A stretch of DNA of 64,000 nt from assembly GCA_025544715.1 (NCBI GenBank), contig GCA_025544715.1_4109.3. One strand, 5' to 3'. The notes beneath the pieces were generated by a model. It worked only from the letters and a program-made list of their open reading frames with translations, was not told where the DNA came from and did not search any database. The stretch comes from Escherichia coli (GTDB taxonomy: Bacteria > Pseudomonadota > Gammaproteobacteria > Enterobacterales > Enterobacteriaceae). A program made the translations under genes and the position numbers. Of this stretch, positions 1 through 63,974 are shown one piece after another (position 1 is the stretch's first letter; each line of letters opens with the position of its first letter).

Positions 1-2196
1 ACTTGCAGCGTTTGTTACAACACCACGAGTTGTACCAGCAGGTGGATACCATACATAACTAACACTATCACTATATGCATATGTACGCATTGCAATAGTA
101 CTACCAGGAACTGCAACTTCTTCACCATCAACGTTAGTACTTAGACACCAACCCATATACTGAGCAGCATAATCATAAGCAGTTGTACGACCAACTGAAC
201 CGTTACTTGGTGCATTGTTAGCATTAGTAGCCCATTGTTGTACAGCACTACCGTTTCCGGTTGGATTCAAACGTGCTGGAACGTCAGTAACAATAAATGC
301 AGTTTCTTTACGATCAGTGTTTAAAGTTACACATTCATCAAGTGTTTCAACGTAACCAGGTACACAAATTAGGTTAAAATCAATAAATTCAGAACGAATG
401 TCATCATTACCAATAATAACAGCAGCTAGTGCTTCAACTACTAGTTGACGTTGTGCAGCACGACCAAATAGACCAGCACCATCAAGACTTACACCACTAA
501 CAACTTCCCATTGACCATTAACCATTTTCTTAACAACACCTTCAGTGTTACCTAGGTCAACAGCAAGCATACCATTTTGATACAATGCCGCAGCAGGAAC
601 TTGGCTTGGGAAATTAAAGTCTTGGAAAATCATACCATTTAGTGTACTTTGGTCAGTACTGTCAAGTTTAACCCATTCACCATCAACGTTACGATAGAAA
701 TCATAACCATCAATGCCTTGAGATAAAGGACAAACCCAAATTAAACGGTCAGCCGCTGGTTCGTCAACTTGTACATATTTGTTTTCTTCTTGTACTAGAT
801 CCCATTCATCATTAGCAACATCAGCAACATACATAGTTACAGTTAGATTATCGGAGTTCCCGAAATCATACCAGAGAGTTCCTTCTTTTGCTACACTACG
901 TGGTACTGAATAACTAACACGGAAGTTATTAACGTTAATTAGAGAGTAGTTGTTACTATCTACAGTTAGTTTTTGTAGTTCAGATTCAGCAAAAATATCA
1001 TCACCACTTTGTGTGATTTTGAAACTGTAACCTTTTGTATTGGAAACAACTAAACCACCATTAGTTTCACGTTTAAATTTAAAACCATCGTTAATAATTT
1101 CAGCATTTGCATTTAGATTATTGATGATAGTTTGGGTATTAATAACACCGCCTTGTGGAACTGCTAGTACTTTAACTGATTTATTCAAATAAACAAAAGT
1201 CATATAACTATCAGCACCTGCTTGTTCAATAATAGTTTCACCAAGTGGCAAAGCAGGAGCACTAATTGTTGTTAGTTTTGCACTTTGAATATAGAAAGAG
1301 AAACTCTTACTATCTTCATCAAAACGAGATGCGATATAACTATTGTTTAGTACACCACTTTTCGCTTCAATTTCTTGGAATGAATTACCAGTATATGCTG
1401 GTACAATATTCCAAACTTGAGTTAGGGATGCATAACGTTTAATAACAAAACGAGTACCAAAATAGTTTGAACCATTTTGGGTGTAACCATCACGAATCCA
1501 AATGTTACCTTTTTCTACAGTTGAGCCAACTGGAACTTTGTTAATTGGTGATAGGTAAGTTTCCATTTGCACTAGCCCAGAAGCAGAACGTTTATACATT
1601 AGCATCTGACCATTGCTTGGTTTGTAACGTAGAACTAAATCATCAACATTTAAACCTACTAGACTTACATCTTCAACTTCTTCAGCACTTACAATAGTTA
1701 CTGGCTTAAGTTGCCAATCATAAAAACTGCTTGGACTATCTTTCTTCGCTACATACGCTTCTACTTGTGATTGTGCGGTATCAAACCACAAAGTACCATT
1801 GGATACTGGGCCAGTTGGTGCTTCAGCACTTGGTGCTAGTTGTGCTAGATCGATATCAGCACGAATTACATATGCACGGTTAGTAATGCCTAGATAAGAA
1901 TATACTGCATGTAGGCCATATTCGTTTAGTTCATCACCTTGAACAACAGAACCGTTATTCATTTGAAAAATTGGTGTACCATAGGTATCAAGTGAGCTTT
2001 TTTGTGATGTTAGAAGCTGTAGTTTTCCAGCGTTTGATTTAGTAGTTCCCGCAGCTATTGCACTGCTTCCAGGGACAAGTTTGTCTTCAGCAGTAGCGAT
2101 TACAAATAGTGGTACAGTGCCAGGAGCAGCAGCGGTACTCATACTTTCATCAGTTACTGAAATGGAAACGCCAGGTGAGAGTAGATCTCCTGCCAT
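1..2196 (-). CDS. Tail sheath protein, N-terminal ~730 aa; gene continues beyond window start
   Basis: Own translation from ATG at 2196 (GGAGG RBS 8 nt upstream) is open to position 1; N-terminus MAGDLLSPGVSISV resembles T4 gp18 MTLLSPGIELK from memory; not in ORF track because no stop in window. Confidence 0.6.
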   Translation of the reverse strand, partial: MAGDLLSPGVSISVTDESMSTAAAPGTVPLFVIATAEDKLVPGSSAIAAGTTKSNAGKLQLLTSQKSSLDTYGTPIFQMNNGSVVQGDELNEYGLHAVYSYLGITNRAYVIRADIDLAQLAPSAEAPTGPVSNGTLWFDTAQSQVEAYVAKKDSPSSFYDWQLKPVTIVSAEEVEDVSLVGLNVDDLVLRYKPSNGQMLMYKRSASGLVQMETYLSPINKVPVGSTVEKGNIWIRDGYTQNGSNYFGTRFVIKRYASLTQVWNIVPAYTGNSFQEIEAKSGVLNNSYIASRFDEDSKSFSFYIQSAKLTTISAPALPLGETIIEQAGADSYMTFVYLNKSVKVLAVPQGGVINTQTIINNLNANAEIINDGFKFKRETNGGLVVSNTKGYSFKITQSGDDIFAESELQKLTVDSNNYSLINVNNFRVSYSVPRSVAKEGTLWYDFGNSDNLTVTMYVADVANDEWDLVQEENKYVQVDEPAADRLIWVCPLSQGIDGYDFYRNVDGEWVKLDSTDQSTLNGMIFQDFNFPSQVPAAALYQNGMLAVDLGNTEGVVKKMVNGQWEVVSGVSLDGAGLFGRAAQRQLVVEALAAVIIGNDDIRSEFIDFNLICVPGYVETLDECVTLNTDRKETAFIVTDVPARLNPTGNGSAVQQWATNANNAPSNGSVGRTTAYDYAAQYMGWCLSTNVDGEEVAVPGSTIAMRTYAYSDSVSYVWYPPAGTTRGVVTNAAS

Positions 2197-2290
2197 ATTA
2201 AATCCTCCAAAAATAATTGGTTATTCGAAATATATTCGTATAGTCTTATTTATTGAAGGATTTAATTGTCCAGTCCTTATTGTTTATAAT

Positions 2291-2917
2291 TTATGTATTA
2301 GAATAAATAATGTCCATTGCTTTTTTATGTAAATCATCAATCGTACTGTTATTCTGTACAATTATATCAGGATTGTTTATTCCAATCCAAGCCCACTCAG
2401 ATTCGTGTACTGATTCTAGTTCAACTGGTTTAATATTAATATCCCCTTTATTATAAGAGGCAGCCAAACCATACCAATGTGGTAGAACACGTTGAACTTC
2501 AATAATAGTCCCATTATTTGATCTAATCATTTTTAATTCATTTGGAAAACGGCAATCAGTGATGATGATATTTCCATCTATGTCTTGCATTGATTTTTCT
2601 AAACTGAATACCCAAATATCATTATGAAAATACTTACGCAAAATATTAGTACCATAATTCTGCAATACCCATCGAGGGGATACATCATTACGACCTAACT
2701 TATCACACCAGTACTGATCCGGTTCTTCACGAATCTTACGACTTTCCTTAGTTGACCCCTCAAGCATTTCACGGTCCCATCCAAAGATAGCAGCAACTGA
2801 ATCTTTTAGATTGGTTGCGAATGACATTCGTGTGTAACCATTATTAATAAAAGATTCACCAAATGTATCTTTACCACTTCCAATAGTTCCGTTGATTGCA
2901 ATTATTTGTCTTCCCAT
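2291..2917 (-). CDS. Deoxynucleoside monophosphate kinase (T4 gp1-like)
   Basis: P-loop GTIGSGKDT; segments resembling T4 gp1 as recalled. Confidence 0.75.
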   Translation of the reverse strand: MGRQIIAINGTIGSGKDTFGESFINNGYTRMSFATNLKDSVAAIFGWDREMLEGSTKESRKIREEPDQYWCDKLGRNDVSPRWVLQNYGTNILRKYFHNDIWVFSLEKSMQDIDGNIIITDCRFPNELKMIRSNNGTIIEVQRVLPHWYGLAASYNKGDINIKPVELESVHESEWAWIGINNPDIIVQNNSTIDDLHKKAMDIIYSNT

Positions 2918-2935
2918 TATACTACTCCATGTATT

Positions 2936-3205
2936 TTATATAATTTCTATTAAATCCTTTCCTACTAAACTTTCAAGTAATCCAAGAATTGACTCATTAC
3001 CATAATATATAGAAACATAAGTAATAAAAAATGTTTCCCCATCATCATCACGATATATACTCGCCCATGCATTTATTCGATCTCTACCGATAACATCAAT
3101 GATTGAATCTTTGATAAATTTCCAGTACTTTTCAGTTGATTCATAATCAAGCGTTGGTCTACCACAACGATATCTGTTATACGTTACATTTATGTTATTA
3201 TTCAT
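2936..3205 (-). CDS. Hypothetical protein (89 aa)
   Basis: ORF in co-directional array; no motif recognised. Confidence 0.4.
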   Translation of the reverse strand: MNNNINVTYNRYRCGRPTLDYESTEKYWKFIKDSIIDVIGRDRINAWASIYRDDDGETFFITYVSIYYGNESILGLLESLVGKDLIEII

Positions 3206-3250
3206 GACAAGTTCCTTTAGATTAATATTATCATTATATCACATAATATG

Positions 3251-5052: not shown

Positions 5053-5529
5053 TTATTTTAGAATATATAAGTGTTTTTCTGCATTGACCAGACGGTGATC
5101 AATGATTTCTTTGATAACGTTCCAGTTACCGCCGCCCAAATCGGCTCCAATTTTCGGGAAATGTACATGAACATCTCGATCAACTTTACAAAAATAATTT
5201 AGATGTTTGAACACATCGTCGATTGCATCATAACTGACATATTTAGCACCGTCATTACCGTACATTTTTTGGGTAATACAGTTTGCAATAATCAAATTAT
5301 CGTTAATTGCTGAATATGCAATTTGTCCAATTCTAAGAAATCCCATTTCCTTTTCATATGCTTTATAATCATCATATGCCATTGGATAACGATTTCTTAG
5401 TTCTTTTGCAAAACCTGAACCCATTTTACCCTGTGCGTTACAACCATGAGCAATTATATGTATTGCTGTTTTATCATCTGTTACAGTACTGAATAATTCA
5501 AACAGATTACCTCGGTGTTCATGAATCAT
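5053..5529 (-). CDS. Macro-domain-like (ADP-ribose binding/processing) protein
   Basis: Gly-rich loops HGCNAQGKMGSGFA and FPKIGADLGGGNW resemble macro domain signature. Confidence 0.45.
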   Translation of the reverse strand: MIHEHRGNLFELFSTVTDDKTAIHIIAHGCNAQGKMGSGFAKELRNRYPMAYDDYKAYEKEMGFLRIGQIAYSAINDNLIIANCITQKMYGNDGAKYVSYDAIDDVFKHLNYFCKVDRDVHVHFPKIGADLGGGNWNVIKEIIDHRLVNAEKHLYILK

Positions 5530-8116: not shown

Positions 8117-8539
8117 TTAAATTAATCTGTCACGTAGACGGTCGTAATATTTTTTGTGTATAGCTAGTATACACTGATATGCAGAATAGTCAATACCAAA
8201 TGTATCATCAATGAACATGTACTGATCAAGTGTTTCGGGTCCATTATCATCAACTGGTAATGTCCCTTCTTTTTTTGATAGTGTGTGCCACATCAACTCA
8301 CTTTCAATATGGTGAGTTGCGTATGTCAATTCTATCTTACTTTTTCGTAGTAAAATTAACAATTCATCATTGTCGTCGAGTGCATTACGAAATTTAATAC
8401 GAACTGTACCCTGGAAATTATTAGTGTACATAACACGATGATGATTGTATGAAATCAAACCACGCCTTTCAGTACTGATTTCGTGTTCAGCAAAGTACTT
8501 TAACGTTTCATTAAATTTTGGAATTTTAGTAACGTCCAA
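8117..8539 (-). CDS. Hypothetical protein, tandem paralog A
   Basis: Shares YMFIDDTFGIDYSAYQ-like block with adjacent ORF 8526-8942. Confidence 0.5.
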   Translation of the reverse strand: MDVTKIPKFNETLKYFAEHEISTERRGLISYNHHRVMYTNNFQGTVRIKFRNALDDNDELLILLRKSKIELTYATHHIESELMWHTLSKKEGTLPVDDNGPETLDQYMFIDDTFGIDYSAYQCILAIHKKYYDRLRDRLI

Positions 8540-8942: not shown

Positions 8943-9118
8943 ATCACATACTTATTACTATGTGGGTCGTAACAATATGAATCATTTACCTTAATACCAG
9001 GCTTAAGTTCAATAGTTGTTCCTGTTTCAGTACTGGATTCCGCATCACAGTAAATCATCACACCAACTCCTGCGAGTAATGCTACGATACATACAATTAC
9101 ACCAATGGTATATTCCAT
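8933..9118 (-). CDS. Small membrane protein (61 aa)
   Basis: Hydrophobic N-terminal segment. Confidence 0.4.
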   Translation of the reverse strand: MEYTIGVIVCIVALLAGVGVMIYCDAESSTETGTTIELKPGIKVNDSYCYDPHSNKYVICL

Positions 9119-11792: not shown

Positions 11793-12149
11793 TTATTTCT
11801 TGTGTAAAGGTTCATCACTTTCATAATAAATTGTATCATTATTTCGCTCTATAGTAAAGCTCTTTTGACACAACTCTTCAGCTAAACCCTTTGCATAGTT
11901 TAATACATCTCGGTTGAGATATACTTCTTCTTTTGGAAAGCGTGGGTACTGAATAATACGAGCACACATCCCACTTTCAAGACCACCCGTGTAGATGTAT
12001 TCACACGGAATCAATTGTACACAAAAACCAAGATTGAATGCAAACTTTCTTGTGTACTCTCTTGCTGTTTGAATATCACCAGCAATATGGATATTCCAGT
12101 ACTGTGTCTCCACTGTACCTTTATCGATGTATTTCATACTCATCTCCAA
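11793..12149 (-). CDS. Hypothetical protein (118 aa)
   Basis: ORF in array. Confidence 0.45.
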   Translation of the reverse strand: MEMSMKYIDKGTVETQYWNIHIAGDIQTAREYTRKFAFNLGFCVQLIPCEYIYTGGLESGMCARIIQYPRFPKEEVYLNRDVLNYAKGLAEELCQKSFTIERNNDTIYYESDEPLHKK

Positions 12150-13050: not shown

Positions 13051-13275
13051 TTAATCGTTATCATCATCCAATGCGTCACGGTAAACATAATAAACATGTG
13101 CACCTAGCAGAGCAATAAGTACAATAAAGACTAACCAGAATGGTACAAAATGCAGTACTAGAGAAAACGCCAGTACTGTAATAACCATTACAACTGAACT
13201 GAAAATAAGACTGACTGCTTTTTCAAATCCAGATAGTAAATTTTTAAAGATTTTTTTCATAAATGAATCAACCAT
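13051..13275 (-). CDS. Small membrane protein (74 aa)
   Basis: Two hydrophobic helices. Confidence 0.45.
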   Translation of the reverse strand: MVDSFMKKIFKNLLSGFEKAVSLIFSSVVMVITVLAFSLVLHFVPFWLVFIVLIALLGAHVYYVYRDALDDDND

Positions 13276-15356: not shown

Positions 15357-15999
15357 TTAGAAATTCACCAATTTTGGTAGTTGATGCTTTAACATTGAAT
15401 TCAGAATCAGGAAAATCTTTAGAAAATGATTCATTTTGTTCTTGTGAAAGTTCTTTTTTCGGTGGAAATAACATTTTGGCTAAATTTTTACCACATTCAA
15501 TTGCTTCATCATATGACATATTTTCCCATGTTTCATGCCAAGTATTAGGATCATATTCTGTCAGTACTGAAATGAAATCAATATCATCAGATGTATAACA
15601 AACAGCATGTTGATTAGAGAATTGTGTTGATTGATTTTTACCTAATAAAACAATTGGCTTTTCATAAGGAATGTTAAATACCAACCCATATTCTAAGCTA
15701 AGAACAGTTTGAATATGTGAACCCTCCAATTTTGGAGTAATAGTACCATCCTTAAAAAAAATTTGGACGTGACCCAAGAGTGGTGTATGGTATGGAGTAA
15801 GTACATTTTCATAATCTAATGTGGTTTTTACTGTGGTGAAAATACCAGATGGTGTAACCATTAATCTATTATCAAAATTCTGATAATGCAAGTCACTCTC
15901 TGCATCATAATGAAAAATGTCTAGATTCGGTTGAGACAGTAGTAATTTTGCTAATTCATGCGATTTCATATTATTTCTCCAAAAGAAAAGGAGAGTCAT
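15337..15999 (-). CDS. Hypothetical protein, paralog of 14383-14967
   Basis: See 14383-14967. Confidence 0.5.
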   Translation of the reverse strand: MTLLFFWRNNMKSHELAKLLLSQPNLDIFHYDAESDLHYQNFDNRLMVTPSGIFTTVKTTLDYENVLTPYHTPLLGHVQIFFKDGTITPKLEGSHIQTVLSLEYGLVFNIPYEKPIVLLGKNQSTQFSNQHAVCYTSDDIDFISVLTEYDPNTWHETWENMSYDEAIECGKNLAKMLFPPKKELSQEQNESFSKDFPDSEFNVKASTTKIGEFLNANQKD

Positions 16000-18082: not shown

Positions 18083-18365
18083 CGTCAGTTTCAGTACTGA
18101 ATGGTTGTACTAGTCTATCTTCTGTTAAACCTCGTTCATAAGTACAATGATAAAACTTATTTGTGCTCATGTCAAGAAATACGAGATCAAATTCTTCAGT
18201 CCACCTTCTGTGTCCTTTGCTTTCATTGCAGATGATTTTATATTTTACATCTGGTTTAAAAGTTTCAGTACTGTCATCCCATGCACCATAGTCAGTATAT
18301 TCATCATCTTCATCTAACTCTGCTAGATGCCACATTAATTGTGGTAAAAAGATTTTAGATTTCAT
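18009..18365 (-). CDS. Hypothetical protein (118 aa)
   Basis: ORF in array. Confidence 0.45.
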   Translation of the reverse strand: MKSKIFLPQLMWHLAELDEDDEYTDYGAWDDSTETFKPDVKYKIICNESKGHRRWTEEFDLVFLDMSTNKFYHCTYERGLTEDRLVQPFSTETDGVKCNEVSVTREEIITYRTLWKYL

Positions 18366-38018: not shown

Positions 38019-38052
38019 TTAAAAAGTACTGCCCGTGATGGCAGTACTGATG

Positions 38053-38412: not shown

Positions 38413-38579
38413 AATTTATAACCCATTACAGGTTTGTTATGATCCGGTTCGTAAGACTTTTCAGTACTGAACCCTCTGAAATTACCACGTCCTGGATTTG
38501 GACAAGCCATCCCTTGTATTGAATGCTTACCCTTATCTTTGCCACAATTTTTACATTTGTAGCCAATTACTTCTTTCAT
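38409..38579 (-). CDS. Small zinc-ribbon protein (56 aa), not in ORF track
   Basis: Own translation MKEVIGYKCKNCGKDKGKHSIQGMACPNPGRG...; ATGA overlaps on both sides. Confidence 0.35.
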   Translation of the reverse strand: MKEVIGYKCKNCGKDKGKHSIQGMACPNPGRGNFRGFSTEKSYEPDHNKPVMGYKL

Positions 38580-38806: not shown

Positions 38807-38809
38807 AAT

Positions 38810-39983: not shown

Positions 39984-40001
39984 CTATAAAATTAGGGAGC
40001 A

Positions 40002-40559
40002 TTAGCTCCCTTTGTATTGATGTTTACGTTTAGTACTGTATTTCCAGCCAGTACTGTGTCTTGTTCTGATATCGTCCCAATACGATGGTAATGAACGCAT
40101 CTTACGTCTTCCACGTATATCAGGTTCCCCCTCATCCTTCAGTACTGCACAAGCCATACGACGCTCTTGTTGAGTCTTAGGACGCTTGTATCGGGAGTGG
40201 TTATGTTTGTACATATACGAACGCTTATGTCGCCATTCCGTATCACGAGCTTTGCGTTTATGTTCCCAGTACTCATTATAGAGTATCATGTATTCACCCA
40301 TAAGTAAATCAGGAGATACAAGTAATCCTTTTTCAGTACAAAGATAATAACCCACAAACTCTTCTGGGAACATTTCGTAATAGAAACGGTTCTTCCAAAA
40401 AGTTTCACGATTCTTTTTGTTGAATTCTGCTAAATCAAATTTCATCTTACTGTGGAAACGATCTATCCCTTGATGGTCAGCAATGTATTGAAGTAGATCG
40501 TCTACAATCTCAACTTTACCAGAATCGTGATACAACGTAAATGTTTGGTCAAAAAACAT
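40002..40559 (-). CDS. Hypothetical protein with basic C-terminus (185 aa)
   Basis: ORF in array. Confidence 0.45.
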   Translation of the reverse strand: MFFDQTFTLYHDSGKVEIVDDLLQYIADHQGIDRFHSKMKFDLAEFNKKNRETFWKNRFYYEMFPEEFVGYYLCTEKGLLVSPDLLMGEYMILYNEYWEHKRKARDTEWRHKRSYMYKHNHSRYKRPKTQQERRMACAVLKDEGEPDIRGRRKMRSLPSYWDDIRTRHSTGWKYSTKRKHQYKGS

Positions 40560-40654: not shown

Positions 40655-40681
40655 TAAAAAATCCCTGCCAAAAGACAGGGA
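40655..40681 (-). terminator. Rho-independent terminator
   Basis: Hairpin TCCCTG-loop-CAGGGA then T6. Confidence 0.55.
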
Positions 40682-40785
40682 CGAAAAACTGAAATAACAC
40701 ATGGAGTTCTTTTTAATTTAATAAAAAGTATTATTATTCTTATAAAAGTATTTATTAAGAACTCCACAATATGGCTTCAAATGAA

Positions 40786-43723: not shown

Positions 43724-44478
43724 TTCATACGTTCCTTAATTATAGTCTCTAGATGTGGTATTGCTTTGGTTGCTGGCTTGATAACTTTTTCATTAAACAA
43801 AAAATCATTATCATTTTTACGAATGTTAACATTAACACTATAACATGGCAATGCTGCTGCTAATCTCGACCATACCAGTACTGTATCGCTACTACCAATT
43901 ACAATAACTGTATCATTTTCATTAAGAGATTTCAACACATTATTTCGTTCTTCGTAAATTGGTAAGCGAATACCATCAACATAACGATGATATTCTCCAA
44001 TCATTACTACATTTGGTTTAGCAAAAACATCATGCTTTGGTATGTATGGTTCGTATCCGCAGTTAATAACATTATAATCATCGGAATTAATACTATAATT
44101 TTCAATAACTTCGCACAAGTTTCCATGAAGTTTAAGCTCATGACCACCAATACGAGTATAAAGATCATCCATGTTAGAAGTCATATGAAGGAAGCAATCA
44201 CCATATTGATCTTCTAACGATTTTATAAAATAATGCATTGCATTGGGTTCGCATTGTCCCAATTTTACACGTAATGTATTATAGAAGGAATGAACAACGT
44301 GATATTTTGTAGTTAAACTAGCAATGTTACATACATCATTAATTTTAAATGTATCCCACAAACCATCATCAAATCGAAAAGGTTCCATACCACTTTCAAC
44401 GGAAAGTCCTGCACCTGATATAATCAGTAATCGTTTTTTACCTTCATTGCTTATAAATTTTTCTGATATCATATTCAA
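43720..44478 (-). CDS. Sir2-family (sirtuin/CobB-like) NAD-dependent enzyme
   Basis: GAGLSVESGMEPFR, PNAMH, TSNMDDLYTRIG, HGNL align with CobB GAGISAESGIRTFR, PNAAH, TQNIDNLHERAG, HGEL. Confidence 0.75.
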   Translation of the reverse strand: MNMISEKFISNEGKKRLLIISGAGLSVESGMEPFRFDDGLWDTFKINDVCNIASLTTKYHVVHSFYNTLRVKLGQCEPNAMHYFIKSLEDQYGDCFLHMTSNMDDLYTRIGGHELKLHGNLCEVIENYSINSDDYNVINCGYEPYIPKHDVFAKPNVVMIGEYHRYVDGIRLPIYEERNNVLKSLNENDTVIVIGSSDTVLVWSRLAAALPCYSVNVNIRKNDNDFLFNEKVIKPATKAIPHLETIIKERMK

Positions 44479-45618: not shown

Positions 45619-46227
45619 TTATTGGTTTACTGATCCATATCGGATTAGTTCAGTTTTTGTCAAGATAACAACATCTTCACCACGAGAACGGCTAACTTTA
45701 TATAGAACGTCTGGTGGAATTCCATTTGCAGAATATAGTGTAAATAGAAAACCTACTTTAGTTGCCATTTCTTCAGTAAAAGTTGATAGCTGCCTAACTG
45801 ATACAAAAGAATTATCACCGTCTTTAACATTACTTTTAATAGAAATGTTATGAAGTCCCAGTACTGAGCGATTTATCATGTATCGCTTTTCAAAAGCTAC
45901 ACTAAAGAATACCACAGTACATGCTGAGTTGCAATACCTAGAAACAATTAAATTTATACCATTGTCTCTAACGAAGTTTGCCATTTTAATTCCAGCATCA
46001 AAATCACCACCTGGTGATGTGATTGTAATGGTATCATAGTGTTCTTTATCATACAACTCCATCATACGCTTGAGTGATCCATCTGTAATATCTGAGATGA
46101 AATATACATTACGTGTTTCTGGATTGTACTTTATCACATTTTTACGTTCAACACCAGCACTGGCTGGAAAATTTATCAACATCAGAAGCATTACTGCTTG
46201 TACTACCTCAAGCCATAGTCTTTTCAT
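45619..46227 (-). CDS. Secreted ClpP/S49-fold serine peptidase-like protein
   Basis: Signal-peptide-like N-terminus; ITSPGGDFDAG motif. Confidence 0.5.
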   Translation of the reverse strand: MKRLWLEVVQAVMLLMLINFPASAGVERKNVIKYNPETRNVYFISDITDGSLKRMMELYDKEHYDTITITSPGGDFDAGIKMANFVRDNGINLIVSRYCNSACTVVFFSVAFEKRYMINRSVLGLHNISIKSNVKDGDNSFVSVRQLSTFTEEMATKVGFLFTLYSANGIPPDVLYKVSRSRGEDVVILTKTELIRYGSVNQ

Positions 46228-46255: not shown

Positions 46256-46263
46256 TATAAATA
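46256..46263 (+). promoter_or_regulatory. T4-late-promoter-like box TATAAATA (plus strand)
   Basis: Exact octamer ~150 nt upstream of plus-strand gene start. Confidence 0.25.
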
Positions 46264-46409
46264 ATATAGTACTTAAACACTTAAGTCAAACTTTTTCTGT
46301 ACTTAACTCAAATTTCCCTCATCAGATAATCCCCTTAGTACAATCACTGTGAAGATTCTATCACAAACCCATACCAAATGTAAAGCTTTTTTTATAAGGA
46401 GTGCCCTTC

Positions 46410-48335
46410 ATGGGAAAACCAATTGCAGGACAAGACCAATTTCCATTCACTATAGGTGGATATTTAGTTGATGGTGCAAACATAAAAGGTACAACATATG
46501 TAAAATCGTTGTACATCTACAAACAGCGTTCCTCTGATTTGTATGATTTAATGGATTCAAATGGAACAATATATCGTTTTATTCGTATTGTTGGATATGG
46601 TCAAGATGGTAACAGATTAAATTATTTTACACCAGCAGAAGAAATTGTACCAAATCTGGCGACCAATACATTTTTTATAAAAGTTCAAGATGCTGAAAGA
46701 AATATATTTTCATTTGTTAGATTGTACCAATTAAATAAAATAATAACATTCGATGGTGATTATATTTTTAGAAAAATAGATAAAGATCGTTATCTAAGTG
46801 GTGTGTTAATTCAACCATCATTAACTACATTACAAGTTGGTAAAACCAGTTCACTGCATTGTGTATTCTACCCTAATGATTACTATGATACTGATGGAAC
46901 TTGGTACATAAACGACCATTCTGATATAAATCCAGAAATACCTAGTAAGTATGCTAAAATCATAGAATATAATAAAAATGAAGTATCTATTGAAGGAACA
47001 TCGGTGGGTATGTCAATACTTTCATTTGTTCCTAAAAATAATAAATCCATAATTTCACATTCTCTTATTAACATTGTTAATGAAAATGTAGATATAGAAT
47101 ACATGGTTGCCGAAAGAAGTTCTCCATTTTTTAATCATTATATTGGCAATGAATGGACTATTCAAATAGTCACATATCCGTATGACGCGACTATACAATA
47201 CCCTCTTGAAATCGTAATCGATGCGGAAGTAGATCCTTATATGAAAATTGCCACTACCGAGTTAGTTGGAGTCTCTGAAAATAATAAAATATATACATTT
47301 AAATCAACACTTGAGCCAGATTTAGAATATTATATAGATTATTATCCACAAATCACCTTCACTATGAATGAACCTTACAAATTTAGTGCATTGTTTGAAA
47401 ATAAAATTTGTTTGTCTGGTTGGGAAAGATATTGTGAAAAAATTACCAGTCCTGGAAAGTTATTTTCTATTGATGAATATGTACGTCCAAACACGACTAA
47501 AACATTAAAATATTGGTTAATGAATGATTATGACCAACATATGTATCCAATACGTTCAACTGATGATGAAATTGCCACAATTGATGTAACAACTGGTATA
47601 TTGAGAACTTACGATAAAAGAGGAACAGTATCTTTCTATACAAATTATACTGATATAACTACTGGGGCCATTAGTCAAGATGAATATTTAGTTGGGAAAC
47701 TAACCGTTACAGACGATGTGTACGATTTAATCGAGGTAGAACCATCAAATATACAATATATGTTCCCAAATCAATCACAACAATTCACGTTAACTGGTTA
47801 TAGAGAAGGTTATCCAAATACATCTTTTAATGTTAATGTAAGTATGTTGAACAATTATGCAACTTCTTCAAACAATATCGTCACTATTAACGAAAATACA
47901 TCTAATAACTCTAGATTTAAGATAGTATCAGATTTCAATGGTAATTATAAAAACTTTAGTAGTATATATTCTAATCAAACACCATCTATTATAGTAAAAA
48001 CAAATCCAAATGATTTAACTCCAATACAAAGTATTGATGTTTCTGAAAATGAAATTTTATCTATAAGAATGGCTGAAGAAAATGAAATAGATGATTATAA
48101 AGTTAGTTTTTATCCAAAACCAAATTATTGTGTTAATTATGAACTTGAAATTGTATCATATGATAATACTATAATTGAAATATATGATAAAGAAAATGCA
48201 TTAAAAAACGGGCTAAATTATTATGGTAATATTATGTTATACATAACACCAAAAAGTCCTGGAAGTACCGAGATTGTTGTTAGATCTGTTCATTACCCAG
48301 ATGTACAACAATCTGTAAAAGTAGTTGTTTATTAA
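46410..48335 (+). CDS. Plus-strand large protein (641 aa from ATG 46410), possible virion decoration/adhesin
   Basis: AGGAG RBS 9 nt upstream; N-terminal ~110 aa paralogous to next gene; Asn/Ser/Thr/Tyr-rich. Confidence 0.55.
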   Translation: MGKPIAGQDQFPFTIGGYLVDGANIKGTTYVKSLYIYKQRSSDLYDLMDSNGTIYRFIRIVGYGQDGNRLNYFTPAEEIVPNLATNTFFIKVQDAERNIFSFVRLYQLNKIITFDGDYIFRKIDKDRYLSGVLIQPSLTTLQVGKTSSLHCVFYPNDYYDTDGTWYINDHSDINPEIPSKYAKIIEYNKNEVSIEGTSVGMSILSFVPKNNKSIISHSLINIVNENVDIEYMVAERSSPFFNHYIGNEWTIQIVTYPYDATIQYPLEIVIDAEVDPYMKIATTELVGVSENNKIYTFKSTLEPDLEYYIDYYPQITFTMNEPYKFSALFENKICLSGWERYCEKITSPGKLFSIDEYVRPNTTKTLKYWLMNDYDQHMYPIRSTDDEIATIDVTTGILRTYDKRGTVSFYTNYTDITTGAISQDEYLVGKLTVTDDVYDLIEVEPSNIQYMFPNQSQQFTLTGYREGYPNTSFNVNVSMLNNYATSSNNIVTINENTSNNSRFKIVSDFNGNYKNFSSIYSNQTPSIIVKTNPNDLTPIQSIDVSENEILSIRMAEENEIDDYKVSFYPKPNYCVNYELEIVSYDNTIIEIYDKENALKNGLNYYGNIMLYITPKSPGSTEIVVRSVHYPDVQQSVKVVVY

Positions 48336-48351
48336 TAAGAGGAAATAAAAT

Positions 48352-49504: not shown

Positions 49505-49973
49505 TACTTAACAATGCGTTTTTACACAAATCATGAATTTTCATAACTCGAATATAGTTTAACACATCTGTTTCATTAATTTCAAATGGTTTATCTGCAT
49601 ATGTAGACCACGTTTGATTTAATTCAATAACAAATGTAATTTTATCTGTATCCATAATATTATCACAAAATCTACGAAAATCTTGCTCTTCATCGGAAAG
49701 TCTGAAATTTAAATCATTTTTTAAACCATTAACTGTGAAGCAAATACCAGTACTGTAACCTATGCAAATATCTTCAATATCATATAATCCATAAATTAAT
49801 TTAGAGATAAACGTGCTATATTTGTTTCTATGATAATAGTTTAATATTTCTTTTTTAATATTATTTTCAATATCAGTAGTTTTTTGTAATGTAAGTTTAA
49901 TTAATTCTAATGTCTTGATTATGTTATCTAACCAGATATTAGTATCATCTATACTTAGGTGTGTGTATTTCAT
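49449..49973 (-). CDS. Hypothetical protein (174 aa)
   Basis: ORF in array. Confidence 0.4.
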   Translation of the reverse strand: MKYTHLSIDDTNIWLDNIIKTLELIKLTLQKTTDIENNIKKEILNYYHRNKYSTFISKLIYGLYDIEDICIGYSTGICFTVNGLKNDLNFRLSDEEQDFRRFCDNIMDTDKITFVIELNQTWSTYADKPFEINETDVLNYIRVMKIHDLCKNALLSIGAYNETYDLVEDSRSSC

Positions 49974-50576: not shown

Positions 50577-50606
50577 AATAAAAAGAGGAATCCAGTACTG
50601 GATTCC
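50577..50606 (-). terminator. Terminator formed by 20-nt perfect palindrome GGAATCCAGTACTGGATTCC
   Basis: Perfect palindrome centred on CAGTACTG; T-rich tract follows on minus strand. Confidence 0.55.
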
Positions 50607-52164: not shown

Positions 52165-52587
52165 CTATTTTACTGGAATATTTGAAAAGAAATCAGTCAT
52201 CCAATACGCCGTTTCTTTGTTGAATAATACTGGATCAAACTTAAGTAACTCAACATGACTTGTATCATACACGCTTGTATCGGTAATGTCAAACAAAGTT
52301 TTAGTACTGAATAGTGGGTTACTCACTAGAAAGTAGTAATCAGCAGTACTGCTAATGTCATCATAAAACACACCGTCATACCATCCATCATCATATACAA
52401 AAACAGAATCGTCTTGAAGATAGTAAACTTCTATATGTAAACTCAAGATCTTCATGGTTTCAATCATTTTTGCCGTATGAGGATTTAACTTATTGACATT
52501 TTCAAACACATAAGAGTGTTTTTCATTCATATCAACAAATGAAAATATTCGTACTGCACGTATATTCATATTACTCCAAATAAACAA
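52165..52587 (-). CDS. Hypothetical protein (140 aa)
   Basis: ORF in array. Confidence 0.45.
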   Translation of the reverse strand: MFIWSNMNIRAVRIFSFVDMNEKHSYVFENVNKLNPHTAKMIETMKILSLHIEVYYLQDDSVFVYDDGWYDGVFYDDISSTADYYFLVSNPLFSTKTLFDITDTSVYDTSHVELLKFDPVLFNKETAYWMTDFFSNIPVK

Positions 52588-52966: not shown

Positions 52967-53770
52967 TTAAATTTCAAATACAAATTTAGGATTGTAATCA
53001 AAATTCTCACAAGCTCCACTATACGATTCATAGCCTCGTGGATTACAAATGATACGTGTCTTACCAATGTGGTAGTCAAAGCTACTATGAACATGACCAT
53101 GAATCCAAACATCAGCACCCAAATCTTCAATGTACTGATCCATATCGGAACAGTAACAACCATTCAGTGAATCATTTTTATATTTTGGTGAAACACTTTG
53201 ATAACTTGGTGCGTGATGAGTAACCACGATGACCTTGAAATCATTATCATGCATAAAGCGAACTGTGTCAATAGAATTTTTGATAAATTGTTTATCTTTG
53301 TGATGCATAAACTCAGTATCATCAGGTGTCAGTTTCTTACGCCAAGGCTCGGTTGTTGTTCCATGACGGATATGTTTGTAATCGTTCATCTTCTGACGAG
53401 CATCAAACTTCGTCAAAGAATTACCTTTATCGAAGTCTGTCCACAGAGTACTACCAACAAGCAGTACTCCATCCAGCCATACAAATTTGTTTTGCAAAAA
53501 GATGAAATTTGGAATCTCATCTTGCATATCGGACAGTACTTTATGCGTTTTGATGATATTGGAACCATAATATTCATGATTGCCAGGAACCAGTACTACA
53601 TTTTTGAACTGCTTACACAGTGATTCGATACCAGTACGGTAACGACTGCGTTTAACTTCATCGAAGTCCCCAGCAATGATCAGTACTGTATCACTGTAAT
53701 CACCACTATGGAGGTAATCAGTGCCACCGTGTACATCAGATGTTACAACAAATTTCATAATTACCTCCAA
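52967..53770 (-). CDS. Calcineurin-like metallophosphoesterase
   Basis: Motifs DVHG, GDFD, GNHE, GHVH. Confidence 0.7.
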   Translation of the reverse strand: MEVIMKFVVTSDVHGGTDYLHSGDYSDTVLIIAGDFDEVKRSRYRTGIESLCKQFKNVVLVPGNHEYYGSNIIKTHKVLSDMQDEIPNFIFLQNKFVWLDGVLLVGSTLWTDFDKGNSLTKFDARQKMNDYKHIRHGTTTEPWRKKLTPDDTEFMHHKDKQFIKNSIDTVRFMHDNDFKVIVVTHHAPSYQSVSPKYKNDSLNGCYCSDMDQYIEDLGADVWIHGHVHSSFDYHIGKTRIICNPRGYESYSGACENFDYNPKFVFEI

Positions 53771-53777: not shown

Positions 53778-55196
53778 TTAACCTAATGATTCAATAATAC
53801 TGTTTGAGAACACTTCAACCGCACTCTCACGAATTTCTAAGATACGAGTATAATCGTCACAAGTGTTTTTGTCAAATCTAAATTCAATAAACACAGGTAA
53901 GAACAGTGATGGTTCACCAGTACGCTTGTCGAATACAATGTCATTACACTCAACAGTAACCACTTTACCAATAAGTTCTTGCATTCTTTCCCAAATGGTT
54001 TTAAATGTCCATTCAGCATCTTTTTCGCGGATGCCTGTTCCTACGCTTACTTTTAGTGTACCACAAGCACTTTCCAGTTGTAAAGAACCAAGCATACCTT
54101 TACGTTTACCTTCACCTTTATTGAAACCAACAATACGCAAGTCCAGTTGCATTTTCAATTTCATTTTCAACTGCTTAGGAGAAGTATGAGATTTCCAGAT
54201 ACCATCTTCACATTTCAGTACTGAACCTTCTTCACCTTCAGCCATGAGTTCGCTATTGTACTCAAATGCTTCTTTGATATTTTGGACTTTACGATAACCT
54301 ACCATACGAACAAATTCACTACCCAATGCATTGATTGCACCTTCAAGAATCTCTCGGCGTTCTTTACGTTTTACATTCCATACACCTTCACAGAAAGCAT
54401 CATATGGCACGACATCCCATAGAACGAATACTGTACGCATTGCTTCGCTTTGGTTAATGGTATCCTTACCTGCTTTCTGAATGATCCCGTTGCCAGTTGT
54501 ACGTGGTAGAATAGTTTCCCCATCAGTATCAAGTACCAACCCTTCCCCCATAAAGACTACACCACTACTGAAACGTTCATCTTTACTTTGGATGATGTGA
54601 GCAAGACCTGCCATCTCACCATCACGACAACCCAGGAAGTCGTACAGTTTGCCATTACGGGATGTAGAAGTTAATGAACCATTAATGACAACGTGGTTCA
54701 AGTACTGACCATCCATTTTCACTTCTGATATAGCGTAACCATAATCTTTGAAGTTGATGTTCTTTGCAGTCTTTTTGTCAATCAAAGAACAACGCATATA
54801 TGGTTCGTCTTTGATGAATCCTTTACCAAACACATCATTGCAGTTCTTCTCCTGAATACCACAATCAAGGTTCTTAGTGAGCATTTTACGGAGAACTTCC
54901 TGATCATCTTCAGATACAGAACCCAGTACTGAAGCAATGAAATCACGCCCCGCATTTCCTGTCACATCACGCTTGTAAATGCATTCCAGCTTATCAATTG
55001 CTTCATCTAACGTCATATGTTGATATACGTCATCAGCGACTGGTAGCTTCTTATAGCCACTTACGATAGAAGGGTCGAGAGTATATTTCAGAACTTTTTG
55101 TAAAGTTACATTATCTTTATTTTGTTCAAGAATAGCCTTTTTGCCCAGAGTACTGCTAGTATTTTTAATGCTTTCAAGAATTGCTAAAATGCTCAT
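53778..55196 (-). CDS. ATP-dependent DNA ligase
   Basis: Adenylation motif EVKMDG; size and organisation like T4 gp30. Confidence 0.8.
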   Translation of the reverse strand: MSILAILESIKNTSSTLGKKAILEQNKDNVTLQKVLKYTLDPSIVSGYKKLPVADDVYQHMTLDEAIDKLECIYKRDVTGNAGRDFIASVLGSVSEDDQEVLRKMLTKNLDCGIQEKNCNDVFGKGFIKDEPYMRCSLIDKKTAKNINFKDYGYAISEVKMDGQYLNHVVINGSLTSTSRNGKLYDFLGCRDGEMAGLAHIIQSKDERFSSGVVFMGEGLVLDTDGETILPRTTGNGIIQKAGKDTINQSEAMRTVFVLWDVVPYDAFCEGVWNVKRKERREILEGAINALGSEFVRMVGYRKVQNIKEAFEYNSELMAEGEEGSVLKCEDGIWKSHTSPKQLKMKLKMQLDLRIVGFNKGEGKRKGMLGSLQLESACGTLKVSVGTGIREKDAEWTFKTIWERMQELIGKVVTVECNDIVFDKRTGEPSLFLPVFIEFRFDKNTCDDYTRILEIRESAVEVFSNSIIESLG

Positions 55197-55207: not shown

Positions 55208-56410
55208 TTATAGATAATACTTTCCAATATAAAGTGGATTACTAATTGATAGTTGAACGTGACACGGCTTATCTTGGTAGTAACGAGAACTTGATGTTTT
55301 GCGTTCATTTGGTGGGAAGAATGGTGAACGATAACCGTTCCATGTACTAAATGATGTGTGCTCATTAATATCAACATCCATTGACATAATTCCATTATCA
55401 TCAATTTGAACTGGGTATGCACTAAAGCGTTCAAATTTATCATTATAATGAATATTATAATCCCCGCTACGTCCATAATAACTACGTGTTGTATTATTAC
55501 TTACACCAAAAAATACGCGATAAGATTGTTCATTATCTTTAGTCATAAATGGTACGTTCTCGTTGAAACGTCCATTATTCATAAGATCATCAACATTTAT
55601 TTCTTCATATTTAATTTTTAGGTCTTTTGCTTTAAATGATTTATTGTGTACCAGTACTGGAATGTTAGATTCACCTAATGGGTTATGTCTGTTTGTTCTA
55701 TAGCTTTGCCAAAATTCATTAGCAAGTTTAATTTCTTCATCTGCCGTAGTCTTCTTATTCAAGAGTGCACGAGGTTCCAGATTGTAATTATCCAAACGTT
55801 GATTCAATGCATAAGTTCCACGAGTACTGTTATAAAGTAAATGATAAACAGAACTTTTGTCGGGGTATGCAAATTCTTTAGTTTTCTTTATACAAATTGC
55901 ATGTACTTTACCGCAGTAATAGTAATCTTCTTTGAGATACGTGAAGCCATCACCAACTTTAAGACCTGCTACAGTTTCTTTTTGTTGTTCTTTTTTATTT
56001 TCTTTTTCAACTAACTTAGCAAATGTTTTTGTTTTACCATTAATTAATTCTAAGTTATTGTTGAAAAACATTGGGTCTACAAAAACACCTTTGATTATAT
56101 CGTTATTGATAATTAAATCATTCATGTTTTTGGCACTAATCATAAATTCAAATCCTTCTGGGTGACGGATTGTGAAATATGTTTCTCGTGCATGAATTGT
56201 TAATTTATCAACTACACAAAATCCAGTAGTTGGAACGTTGTCAATATATAACGATGGAAGATTGTTCTTCTTTGCCCAGTACTCTGCTCTCTCTTTCTTT
56301 GTTTCAAACGCTTTTGTATGTGATTTTGTTGCATCGATAATAAAACCATCAACTTGGTTGTGGTTTACATAGGAACGTGCAACAAATAACTTCTCTGGAA
56401 AATCCATCAA
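55208..56410 (-). CDS. Hypothetical protein (400 aa)
   Basis: ORF in array. Confidence 0.5.
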   Translation of the reverse strand: MMDFPEKLFVARSYVNHNQVDGFIIDATKSHTKAFETKKERAEYWAKKNNLPSLYIDNVPTTGFCVVDKLTIHARETYFTIRHPEGFEFMISAKNMNDLIINNDIIKGVFVDPMFFNNNLELINGKTKTFAKLVEKENKKEQQKETVAGLKVGDGFTYLKEDYYYCGKVHAICIKKTKEFAYPDKSSVYHLLYNSTRGTYALNQRLDNYNLEPRALLNKKTTADEEIKLANEFWQSYRTNRHNPLGESNIPVLVHNKSFKAKDLKIKYEEINVDDLMNNGRFNENVPFMTKDNEQSYRVFFGVSNNTTRSYYGRSGDYNIHYNDKFERFSAYPVQIDDNGIMSMDVDINEHTSFSTWNGYRSPFFPPNERKTSSSRYYQDKPCHVQLSISNPLYIGKYYL

Positions 56411-56826
56411 ATAGTCCTCATTGTACTGATTGCTTTTAGTGTGTCAAACAATGCACCATATTTTACTTGCATTAGTTGATCACCCGCAGGAAGATTCATA
56501 CGCATAACAGCCATGTCTTCAATCATTTCAGACGTACACAGTACTGCTACACAGGTAATAGCATCATTTAATCCAGCTTCATTGAATTTGGCAAAAGGAA
56601 CTTTTCCCTGTTTGCTAAGGTTGTTATAATAAGAATTTAATTTATCATGTCCACCAGCATTTAGTACTACAATAGTTTCGTGTTCATAGTACCATTCATC
56701 AATAATAGTACTGAAAGCAGTACCTTCATATTCTTTAATTAGTTTAACACCAGCATGGAATGCTTGAATACCAGCTTGGACACCTTGACAGTACATATTA
56801 GTTAAGCAATACAATTTCATTTCCAT
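56407..56826 (-). CDS. Hypothetical protein (139 aa)
   Basis: ORF in array. Confidence 0.45.
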   Translation of the reverse strand: MEMKLYCLTNMYCQGVQAGIQAFHAGVKLIKEYEGTAFSTIIDEWYYEHETIVVLNAGGHDKLNSYYNNLSKQGKVPFAKFNEAGLNDAITCVAVLCTSEMIEDMAVMRMNLPAGDQLMQVKYGALFDTLKAISTMRTI

Positions 56827-60467: not shown

Positions 60468-60766
60468 AAAAATCTCACAGATTTAATATTACTAGTTACA
60501 TGATTAACCCAAGTGTTATCGAACTTGTAAACAATTGTATTAAGTGATTTATGAAAATTAACCTCAGACACCACAGCCTTGGAACCATTGATTACACAGA
60601 CGGTTGACGGTAAATTATTTGCTAATATCTCTTTTTCATCTAAAGATAGTGAACTAATACAATCATAATAGAGAGGTTCAAGAACTTGTTCAGTACTGAG
60701 AAATTCAAAAGAAAGATCATCTATTAGTTTTATGTAATCGAATAAATTATGATAATATTCATTCAT
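60464..60766 (-). CDS. Hypothetical protein (start likely MNEYYHN at 60766)
   Basis: Internal ATG avoids 65-nt overlap with upstream gene. Confidence 0.4.
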   Translation of the reverse strand: MNEYYHNLFDYIKLIDDLSFEFLSTEQVLEPLYYDCISSLSLDEKEILANNLPSTVCVINGSKAVVSEVNFHKSLNTIVYKFDNTWVNHVTSNIKSVRFL

Positions 60767-63016: not shown

Positions 63017-63230
63017 TAACTTTTCCTACTCCAAATCGTTTGGAGATTTTCACAAGTACAGATTCATCACAACGAATACTAGCTGTATCATTGGATGAAC
63101 TGTACTTTAATGGGGTCCACTGTAATTGAGATTCTTCTAGGAACTTGATACATCTGAAGTAATCTTTCAGAGAAAGAAATTTAACTACTGACATATCCTG
63201 AACAATACTATGCTGAACTTCAACTTTCAT
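63000..63230 (-). CDS. Hypothetical protein (76 aa)
   Basis: ORF in array. Confidence 0.4.
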   Translation of the reverse strand: MKVEVQHSIVQDMSVVKFLSLKDYFRCIKFLEESQLQWTPLKYSSSNDTASIRCDESVLVKISKRFGVGKVNEHSK

Positions 63231-63239
63231 ATGAACTCC

Positions 63240-63497
63240 TTATAGTGGATCAAATTTATTTTCACGTTTCGATGTATAGCGAGTTACATCATGTATTCTC
63301 GGCTTAACACCTTTTGGTTTCCTTTTCTTCTTGTATTCAGTACTACTACATCCGAAGGTATTCTCGATTCGTTTCTTACTTATCTTCACACCTTTCATTG
63401 AGCGTTTGTGCTGTAATTCATCGATTTCTTCTTGTATTTTCCTGAACTCAGTCGGAGAAAGGGAACCGTCATTTTTATACTTAGGTTTAGCCATCAC
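63240..63497 (-). CDS. Small basic protein (85 aa; GTG start)
   Basis: Lys/Arg-rich. Confidence 0.4.
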   Translation of the reverse strand: MMAKPKYKNDGSLSPTEFRKIQEEIDELQHKRSMKGVKISKKRIENTFGCSSTEYKKKRKPKGVKPRIHDVTRYTSKRENKFDPL

Positions 63498-63524
63498 TTC
63501 TCCTTGTGCTTAGGCTAGATAGTA

Positions 63525-63974
63525 CTAAAAATCCTTTAGTACAATTTTCATGTATTTTATAAGAGTCTCTTTGTAATCAACTTTCTTATTGTTATACATT
63601 GCAAAGGCCAAGCCCTGACGATTCAGTTCATTAGTTAAACACTCCTGAACCTTCATTGCGAATTCCTTTCGCTCCAAGTGCTTGTGTTCCTTGACGAAGC
63701 TTTCTACTTCATCTTGTAATGCATTATAGCACGAAAATACCAATTGTTCCATTCTTAATATCTTTTGCATAGCATATTCATCAGTACTGAACAATTGTTT
63801 TAAATCATCACTTGAACCATTTAATACGGCTTCATATAAATGAGAATCAATAATAATACTATCTTTTGTAAGATGTAATGAACTGTACCAGTCAGTCTTT
63901 ATTTTACACATTGTTCCATTATTTAGGATGCACACAAAACCCTCAATATCAAGCATTTTATGAACTTCCTCCAC
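63525..63974 (-). CDS. Hypothetical protein (149 aa)
   Basis: ORF near window end. Confidence 0.4.
   Translation of the reverse strand: MEEVHKMLDIEGFVCILNNGTMCKIKTDWYSSLHLTKDSIIIDSHLYEAVLNGSSDDLKQLFSTDEYAMQKILRMEQLVFSCYNALQDEVESFVKEHKHLERKEFAMKVQECLTNELNRQGLAFAMYNNKKVDYKETLIKYMKIVLKDF

Follow-up and report, generated by a model that had tools for sequence, protein, structure and literature searches.

What keeps a palindrome of eight base pairs, CAGTACTG, at three dozen places in a stretch of DNA of which the composition predicts less than one copy? The stretch is the contig GCA_025544715.1_4109.3 of an assembly filed under Escherichia coli; we analysed its 64 kb in full and call it the window. 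It is 94-97% identical to the jumbo coliphages of the PBECO4/121Q/E9.1 group (genus Asteriusvirus, about 350 kb), which are T4-related but very large. A preliminary description had noticed the octamer and its core AGTACT, a hexamer which is its own reverse complement, and had taken them for a sequence selected at the DNA level, for example the site of a DNA-binding, modifying, nicking or condensing factor. We report here that the excess of AGTACT is real, strong and common to a whole clade of phages, and that it is kept by selection at the DNA level, independently of the encoded proteins.

The excess of AGTACT in the window

By exact search the window contains 36 copies of the octamer, whereas in 100 dinucleotide shuffles of the 64 kb it appears 0.79 times on average and never more than 4 times. 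The expectation of less than one copy in the preliminary description is therefore sound, as is the enrichment which it read from a list of at least 35 octamers; the list itself lacked the octamer at 13171 and misplaced those at 40140 and 63782 by one base. The hexamer occurs 148 times (97..63788) against 17.4 in the shuffles (maximum 33). The excess over chance in the ranking given below is 6.9-fold, where about five-fold had been announced, and the count of about 110 which accompanied it was too low. Expectations taken from composition or low-order statistics are 17-22 for AGTACT and 0.6-0.8 for CAGTACTG. In an unbiased ranking of the 6-, 7- and 8-mers of the window, the most over-represented words are AGTACT, CAGTAC/GTACTG, CAGTACT/AGTACTG and CAGTACTG.

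The excess climbs outward from the centre of the word: it is 2.1-fold for GTAC, 3.6-fold for AGTAC, 6.9-fold for AGTACT, 18-fold for CAGTACT and 60-fold for CAGTACTG. Markov models of orders 0 to 6 predict 0.6, 0.8, 1.6, 3.6, 13, 27 and 34 octamers (36 observed), and models of orders 0 to 4 predict 21.5, 17.5, 29, 51 and 121 hexamers (148 observed). The check by fifth- and sixth-order models, which had been proposed from the start, comes close to the observed number of octamers, but these models are trained on the enriched sub-words, and low orders stay at 0.6-3.6. Since only models trained on enriched sub-words match the counts, the signal is a graded and symmetric weight matrix centred on GTAC and not one rigid word.

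The preference for C on the 5' side and G on the 3' side, already pointed out, is confirmed: C precedes AGTACT at 74 of the 148 sites (50%) and G at 7, and G follows it at 68 (46%), the avoided bases (G before, C after) amounting to 5-8%. The choices made on the two sides are mutually independent and are mirror images of each other. Weak T-rich and A-rich positions stretch the consensus to ttCAGTACTGaa, and past about 4 bp the flanks hold no information, which, together with the location of the sites in unrelated genes, rules out a dispersed repeat or a mobile element. One-mismatch neighbours of AGTACT are not depleted, and those which keep GTAC are about two-fold enriched; changes at G2 or C5 remove the excess, and the centre of the word tolerates change better than these two positions. 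This spectrum of neighbours speaks for a graded affinity and against a drive by repair or conversion.

The density of AGTACT is 2.3 per kb and is equal inside and outside the open reading frames (ORFs). The spacing of the octamers was rightly called fairly even, at about one per 1.8 kb: the mean gap is 1804 bp, with a coefficient of variation of 0.69 against 0.96 under random placement (P=0.014). For the hexamer it is 0.84 against 0.99 (P=0.02). Unlike the strand-skewed guide words (Chi, KOPS), which are asymmetric and have a strand bias tied to the direction of replication, the word is a palindrome with mirrored flank preferences.

The encoded proteins do not account for the excess

A crude call of ORFs counts about 110 genes, with 100 on the minus strand. 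Octamers fall 2, 18 and 12 times in frames 0, 1 and 2, with 4 more outside the called ORFs; for the hexamer the numbers are 52, 31 and 50, with 15 outside. The sites had been said to lie in all three frames of many genes, and they do; the octamer at 2709..2716 in the dNMP kinase gene is indeed read Q-Y-W. When synonymous codons are permuted within genes, proteins and codon usage being kept, one finds 6.5 +/- 1.5 octamers, of which 4 are the fixed non-coding sites, and 49.7 +/- 5.1 hexamers against the 148 observed; shuffling the order of the codons gives 4.7 octamers and 35.4 hexamers. These two codon-preserving shuffles rule out codon or dipeptide bias as the cause, as the preliminary description had argued. 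It had also named, as the result that would speak against it, codon and dinucleotide shuffles reaching about 35 octamers; they gave 0.8 to 6.5.

Read in frame 0, as at 52 of the 148 sites of the window, the word is AGT-ACT. The relative Sharanji has at 95470-95561 an annotated phage tRNA-Ser with the anticodon ACT, which would read the AGT codon. The tRNA set of Sharanji may compensate for the codon use imposed by the DNA word.

Distribution of the word among phages and hosts

We counted AGTACT in samples of 20-50 kb from relatives and controls. The word was seen 129 times in E9.1 and 128 times in vB_Ec-M-J (17 expected in both), 209 and 146 times in two samples of Sharanji (17 expected), 114 times in RaK2 of Klebsiella and again 114 times in GAP32 of Cronobacter (17 expected in both), 162 times in CBB of Pectobacterium (17 expected) and 132 times in the Erwinia phage pEa_SNUABM_12 (14 expected). 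The enrichment is thus 7-9 fold in all five enterobacterial genera sampled, those of Asteriusvirus, RaK2, GAP32, CBB and the Erwinia Eneladusvirus, which share no DNA similarity. On the other hand, it was seen 3 times in PA5oct of Pseudomonas (17 expected), 0 times in XacN1 of Xanthomonas (13 expected) and 3 times in Atu_ph07 of Agrobacterium (17 expected). The comparison of enriched and depleted samples makes the excess a trait of the enterobacterial RaK2-like clade. The preliminary description had allowed that the host and unrelated phages might be equally enriched; they are depleted (E. coli K-12, 3 for 11.6 expected; T4, 4 for 17; T5, 1 for 6.5; Vi01, 1 for 5.8). The excess of the clade hence opposes a general avoidance of AGTACT in its hosts and in other phages of those hosts. 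Extrapolation from samples of 50-164 kb gives about 900 AGTACT per genome, and the density of 2.3 per kb in the phage is 40-fold that of E. coli (about 0.06 per kb).

The unit conserved across genera is the hexamer. The preference for C..G flanks is confined to Asteriusvirus and RaK2; the Erwinia phage favours A..T flanks (AAGTACTT 24 times, CAGTACTG 5 times), and GAP32 and CBB have mixed preferences. In four of five genomes the hexamer gaps are somewhat more even than under random placement, with a coefficient of variation of 0.80-0.84 where 0.99 is expected (P 0.007-0.02 for each); in RaK2 it is 0.97, and no discrete period is seen.

All the phages which have the word infect Enterobacterales, and the relatives from Pseudomonas, Xanthomonas and Agrobacterium are without it. 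The same would be seen if a host protein of the Enterobacterales read the word and the phage exploited it. The candidate is the nucleoid-occlusion factor SlmA, of site GTGAGTACTCAC: with the phage DNA dispersed in the cell, SlmA bound to it would prevent FtsZ rings and thereby division. SlmA sites share much with the phage word, being palindromic, mostly intragenic and not transcriptional, in the same host order, with AGTACT as their core and tolerant central positions (PMC3020112); the centre of the phage word is likewise more tolerant than G2 and C5. Moreover, infection by Sharanji turns cells into filaments along which the DNA is spread (PMC11895373). However, both half-sites of an SlmA site call for G1, T2, a purine at position 3, A4, G5 and a pyrimidine at position 6 (PMC3020112), and the window has 0 matches to GT.AG..CT.AC; flanking GT of the SlmA type is at chance level (7 and 11 of 148), and the G equivalent to position 3 is the least used base (5-8%). 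SlmA sites number about 50 per 4.6 Mb, against about 2.3 per kb here, and tblastn finds no SlmA homologue in these phages. We therefore rejected the identity with the SlmA site, of which the core is common but the flanks fail. Against any host reader it must be added that T4, T5 and Vi01 infect the same hosts yet deplete AGTACT, that the flank preference varies with the genus of the phage, and that a host repressor-like protein sitting on early promoters at entry would be expected to harm the phage. A host reader thus seems unlikely to us.

Selection on the sites

Between the window and vB_Ec-M-J (83% identity), 18 of the 29 octamers that were aligned are preserved, and so are 73 of the 117 hexamers (62%), where arbitrary words of equal length are preserved in 31% and 39% of cases. 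Identity at third codon positions is 82% within the hexamer and 68% in the flanks of 40 bp around these sites. About 40% of the sites have turned over between the two phages while the totals stay equal, and turnover at constant totals is the pattern of many weakly selected sites. The enrichment in five genera, the conserved synonymous positions and the fixed place in early promoters described below bear out the claim of selection at the DNA level.

One could still suppose that the word has no function and is a by-product of a directional mutation, repair or gene-conversion bias in the replication machinery of the clade. Very-short-patch repair does shift oligomer frequencies in E. coli, and the short-term gains and losses of sites are near their neutral expectation. 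This supposition is nevertheless very improbable in our eyes: one-mismatch neighbours are undepleted and those keeping GTAC even enriched, synonymous positions are more conserved within the sites than around them, the spacing is slightly more even than random, and the early control region is three times denser in a word which has there a fixed position.

A fixed place in early promoters

Along the first 100 kb of Sharanji the word is unevenly distributed: segments of 5 kb hold 28-34 hexamers from 15 to 40 kb and 10-18 elsewhere. Very small minus-strand genes, clustered and with cassettes between them, make up the dense region, where AGTACT reaches 9.2 per kb outside genes and 4.0 inside, the window having 2.3 for both. 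The intergenic copies occupy a fixed place in near-consensus sigma-70 promoters, TTGACA-N9/10-AGTACTG-TATAAT (or G-CATAAT), AGTACTG being constant while the remaining bases of the spacer vary. The arrangement TTGACA-N9/10-AGTACT is found in 16 of the 30 near-consensus promoters of the first 50 kb and in 5 of the 24 of the next 50 kb. In a scan of 2.9 million viral contigs, the exact 19-base pattern TTGACA-N9/10-AGTACTGTATAAT occurs 11 times in a 121Q contig and 9 times in a RaK2 contig, other contigs giving single chance matches only. The arrangement is thus common to two genera without DNA similarity. The -35 element of RaK2 is often overlapped by a second AGTACT (AGTAC|TTGACA), whose centre lies 20 bp from that of the first. 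Two palindromes which flank the -35 and -10 elements would correspond to the layout of a classical repressor operator, and a palindrome at a fixed position between the -35 and -10 elements of several promoters, as an operator should be, is what we find in Sharanji, 121Q and RaK2.

The window has a single site of this class, TTGACT-N10-AGTACT-A-TATTAT (46261..46289, minus strand), upstream of the ORF 45619-46227; none of its 14 other near-consensus promoters contains AGTACT. The C..G group thus seems to have specialised in placing the word in promoters, in addition to a wider function exerted over the whole genome.

Several observations concern the surroundings of these promoters. The TTGACA-N9-AGTACTG-TATAAT promoters (Sharanji 15000-41000, 121Q, RaK2) are followed by a conserved leader, gtttACATCAAGGGGAGAA...TTCTCCCC, which can fold as a hairpin about 10-35 nt downstream. 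In a second type of cassette AGTACT abuts a TTGCAA -35 element, and another AGTACT lies about 24 nt upstream. A non-coding stretch of 2 kb in Sharanji, dense in CAGTACTG and with divergent promoter-like elements, contains at 35545-35672 about 12 head-to-tail units of 8 bp (TCTAGCCG / TTTAGCCG / TCCAAACG); these look like iterons, and the locus could be an origin or a control locus. At 36700-40700, about 15 paralogous ORFs of about 60 amino acids, mostly unannotated, stand back to back on the minus strand. The likeness of the promoter sequence ACTGTATAAT...ACA to a LexA box was set aside by reading, without a score: its spacing and its right half misfit CTGT-N8-ACAG.

A putative reader of the word

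With a probability of about one half, we think that AGTACT is the binding site of a putative two-fold symmetric protein which binds double-stranded DNA and is peculiar to the enterobacterial RaK2-like jumbo phages. The recognition word would be AGTACT, extended in Asteriusvirus to ttCAGTACTGaa. We favour a dimeric binder because of the two-fold symmetry of the word, its graded specificity, its flanks which drift between genera, its concentration in the control region and its fixed place in promoters. The reader is most likely encoded by the phage: co-evolution of a phage protein and its site should make the flanks drift between genera. Once made or delivered, a dimer on the promoter site would occlude the host RNA polymerase and so shut off, or otherwise control, early transcription. 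The same protein could load, through the approximately 900 intragenic copies, on chemically ordinary phage DNA rather than on host DNA, and the loading might serve to organise, condense, protect or counter-silence the phage DNA. With 2.3 sites per kb against about 0.06, phage DNA would be a 40-fold better substrate for such a protein than host DNA. Hydroxymethyluracil plays a comparable role in the loading of TF1 on the DNA of phage SPO1. As to the chemistry and the packing of the DNA, ten ordinary restriction enzymes cut that of fEgEco12, of the Asteriusvirus group, in the way predicted for it (PMC13070987), and the capsid of Asteriusvirus holds, besides several DNA-associated proteins, an inner body of protein that is embedded in the DNA (PMC7247149).

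Covalent modification is another use to which such a word might be put. AGTACT would then be the target of, for instance, an orphan methyltransferase of ScaI specificity, and its abundance would be tied to the enzyme, as has been argued for the highly iterated palindrome HIP1 of cyanobacteria and the CGATCG/GATC methyltransferases. AGTACT is a known restriction-modification specificity, that of ScaI and its isoschizomers, and restriction systems of this kind would threaten a genome with about 900 ScaI sites unless it was protected. The phages of the clade encode several methyltransferases (PMC11895373, PMC3622015, PMC5259590), and the abundance of HIP1 correlates with its methyltransferases (PMC4390886). 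Against this, when native and amplified DNA of Kaldavass, a Mimasvirus phage, were compared by nanopore sequencing, only GATC, CCWGG and TGCAT were found (10.1101/2024.10.22.619576), Kaldavass being of another genus and its AGTACT abundance not having been counted; CBB, related to Kaldavass, has three annotated DNA methyltransferases, which matches the three motifs (PMC5259590). Besides, a site enriched 7-9 fold is not avoided in the manner of a target of ScaI-type restriction-modification, and modification alone explains neither the enrichment nor the fixed position in promoters. Methylation-coupled short-patch repair, as a drive, would deplete AGTATT and AATACT, which are at expectation (0.95), and was rejected. 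The modification by Mom, of which the context is S-A-S-N-Y, was rejected too, as CAGTA does not fit it. We hold the modification of AGTACT to be improbable.

Another possibility is that an enzyme acts on the word during infection: a site-specific nickase, for the loading of replication or of late transcription, a phage type II topoisomerase, or an endonuclease which initiates recombination. Nicks linked to motifs are known in T5 and in the tf/Rembedalsseter phages, where a short enriched word, of open function, is conserved across related phages with little DNA similarity (10.1101/2024.10.22.619576). The near-even spacing, about 0.4 kb for the hexamer or 1.8 kb for the octamer, would suit repeated sites of loading or decatenation, and topoisomerase II is present in the virion of phAPEC6 (PMC7247149). 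But the nick motifs known so far are asymmetric and confined to one strand, with 10-20 copies per genome (9-13 and clustered at one end for those of T5 and tf/Rembedalsseter), whereas AGTACT is palindromic, has about 900 copies and lies everywhere, at 2.3 per kb. Nicks on both strands at AGTACT would break the genome, and no coverage drops were reported for the two jumbo phages of the nanopore study (10.1101/2024.10.22.619576). T4 has homologous topoisomerase, replication and recombination proteins yet depletes the word, which also led us to discard the T4-type topoisomerase, primase and recombination proteins as readers. Finally, a fixed position in a promoter spacer is not expected for a nickase, a topoisomerase or an endonuclease. 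An enzyme of this kind thus appears quite unlikely. Of the factors which had been suggested (binding, modifying, nicking or condensing), we prefer one that binds to one that modifies or nicks, although the published evidence for this choice is only indirect and the search for the factor itself yielded none.

Several points weigh against a binding protein of the clade. No reader was found in the small part of the proteome that was examined: the helix-turn-helix protein CBB_511 (HTH_37), which we considered, has no detectable homologue in the Asteriusvirus or RaK2 DNA searched and was rejected; a Pfam scan of the ten genes around the sigma factor of Sharanji gave no DNA-binding domain, nor did a scan of ten ORFs of the window which included those of its plus-strand island. 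The site in the promoter spacer is absent from the promoters of CBB, GAP32 and the Erwinia phage pEa_SNUABM_12 in the regions examined. With promoters concerned in only two of the five genera, an operator function cannot be the general cause of the genome-wide enrichment. The changes polarised by an outgroup amount to 12 losses against 18 under neutrality and 3 gains against 2.6, a weak and underpowered result based on few events, in which selection on single sites looks weak over short times. The benefit of hundreds of intragenic sites is something that we infer. Lastly, the absence of modification is taken indirectly from the one published study mentioned above, of a phage of another genus whose AGTACT abundance is not counted.

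The absence of GCGC and other biases of composition

Base composition predicts 50 copies of the tetranucleotide GCGC in the window, and a Markov model 19.5, yet there is none. Nor does any sample of the enterobacterial RaK2-like phages contain GCGC, over a total of about 450 kb, while PA5oct, T4, Vi01 and E. coli have it at normal levels, so that the absence of GCGC and the excess of AGTACT have the same phyletic distribution. The absence could reflect the avoidance of restriction or a GCGC-directed attack on host DNA. Avoidance of restriction sites is strong in these same genomes for other palindromes (GCGC zero; CTTAAG and GATATC near zero); AGTACT, on the contrary, is enriched in the clade though it is avoided in the host, T4, T5, Vi01, PA5oct, XacN1 and Atu_ph07.

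Jumbo phages of the Sharanji type form no phage nucleus (PMC11895373). It is conceivable, though unlikely, that such phages tell self from host by composition alone, AGTACT being a positive barcode and the absence of GCGC a negative one. The positive barcode (about 900 copies, 40 times the density of the host) would load a phage or virion protein all over the genome and on early promoters; a GCGC-directed nuclease would destroy host DNA, which has GCGC about every 150 bp, and spare the phage.

Two lesser biases were noticed. Words which overlap the reverse complement of Chi are enriched (CACCAGCA, 9 times against 0.4 expected in the window; CTGGTGCA, 18 times against 0.6 in GAP32), and TGCA is 1.5-2 fold enriched across the clade. 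Both are probably due to runs of Ala and Gly codons. TGCAT is the modification motif of phage Kaldavass and was left unexplained there (10.1101/2024.10.22.619576).

Positions of the sites in the window

No strand is assigned to the sites, the word being a palindrome. The octamers located by exact search lie at 654..661, 2709..2716 (the dNMP kinase gene), 5484..5491, 8470..8477 (with another AGTACT at 23 bp), 9028..9035, 12097..12104, 13171..13178 (another AGTACT at 18 bp), 15562..15569, 18092..18099, 18266..18273, 21788..21795, 27090..27097, 29836..29843, 31399..31406, 33496..33503, 34505..34512, 35420..35427, 38042..38049 (outside the called ORFs, another AGTACT at 18 bp), 38462..38469, 40049..40056 (another AGTACT at 18 bp), 40140..40147, 41604..41611, 42081..42088, 42384..42391, 43876..43883, 45859..45866, 49748..49755, 50593..50600 (at the centre of a terminator-like hairpin), 52344..52351, 53681..53688, 54216..54223 and 54924..54931 (both in the DNA ligase gene), 55652..55659, 56539..56546, 60691..60698 and 63782..63789.

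Three pairs made of an AGTACT and a CAGTACTG are exactly 18 bp apart (13154/13172, 38025/38043 and 40032/40050), two of them in ORFs and one intergenic; this may be chance or a preferred spacing of pairs. The hairpin is a perfect one, GGAATCC-AGTACT-GGATTCC, at about 50587-50606, and is followed by a run of T on the minus strand; it is terminator-like and lies between two genes.

The plus-strand island (46401-48729) contains no octamer, as had been remarked, and the widest hexamer gap of the window (46268 to 48670) spans its ORF of 644 amino acids. The ORF (46401..48335, plus strand, 30% GC) is free of AGTACT, where about 4.5 would be expected at the local density. This ORF has no Pfam match and no annotated counterpart in phage E9.1, which has at the position of the island only the gene of the downstream virion protein of 125 amino acids. 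It is probably a recent insert which does not yet carry the word, and an apparent insert of this kind fits models with selection and neutral models alike.

Known systems and biological meaning

The nearest known system is HIP1, the palindrome GCGATCGC of cyanobacteria (PMC5861425, PMC4390886). Both are palindromic octamers with a hexamer or tetramer core, over-represented tens to hundreds of times across a lineage; both are mostly intragenic, in all frames and beyond what codon usage explains, with sites conserved above background and an unsettled function. HIP1 is quasi-regularly spaced; the phage word is slightly more even than random in four of five genomes. The many-fold genome-wide excess, the intragenic sites in all frames and the conservation which we report are those of a HIP-type word. 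The phage word is however (C)AGTACT(G) and not GCGATCGC, in a window where GCGC is absent; it belongs to a phage clade and not to a bacterial phylum, gives no sign of a cognate methyltransferase, is also fixed in early promoters and has flanks which drift between genera.

Phage regulators with many sites on their own genome exist, such as TF1 of SPO1, p6 of phi29 and C1 of P1. They resemble the protein that we propose in that one protein acts on early promoters and at many places of the genome and tells phage DNA from host DNA. They differ in that TF1 uses a modified base, p6 the bendability of DNA, and C1 about 15-20 asymmetric operators; to our knowledge none has been reported to drive a genome-wide intragenic excess of a short palindrome, and we know of no such protein in the RaK2-like clade. 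The word is not mentioned in the papers on RaK2, CBB, Sharanji, fEgEco12 and phAPEC6 or in a jumbo-phage review, and a full-text search did not find it. Hence, within the literature searched, the excess of AGTACT appears undescribed, and the statement of the preliminary description that it knew of no system using this site agrees with what we found.

AGTACT would be the first palindrome of the highly iterated kind to be reported from a lineage of phages. Its fixed place in strong early promoters is a lead which HIP1 lacks after thirty years, and it makes the question directly testable. A genome rich in AGTACT and free of GCGC is a cheap marker by which the clade can be recognised in metagenomes, and the same signature would constrain the recoding or engineering of these phages, which are therapeutic candidates. 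If the reader marks or coats phage DNA, it would show how a phage of 350 kb, without a nucleus-like shell or bulk base modification, separates its own DNA from that of its host.

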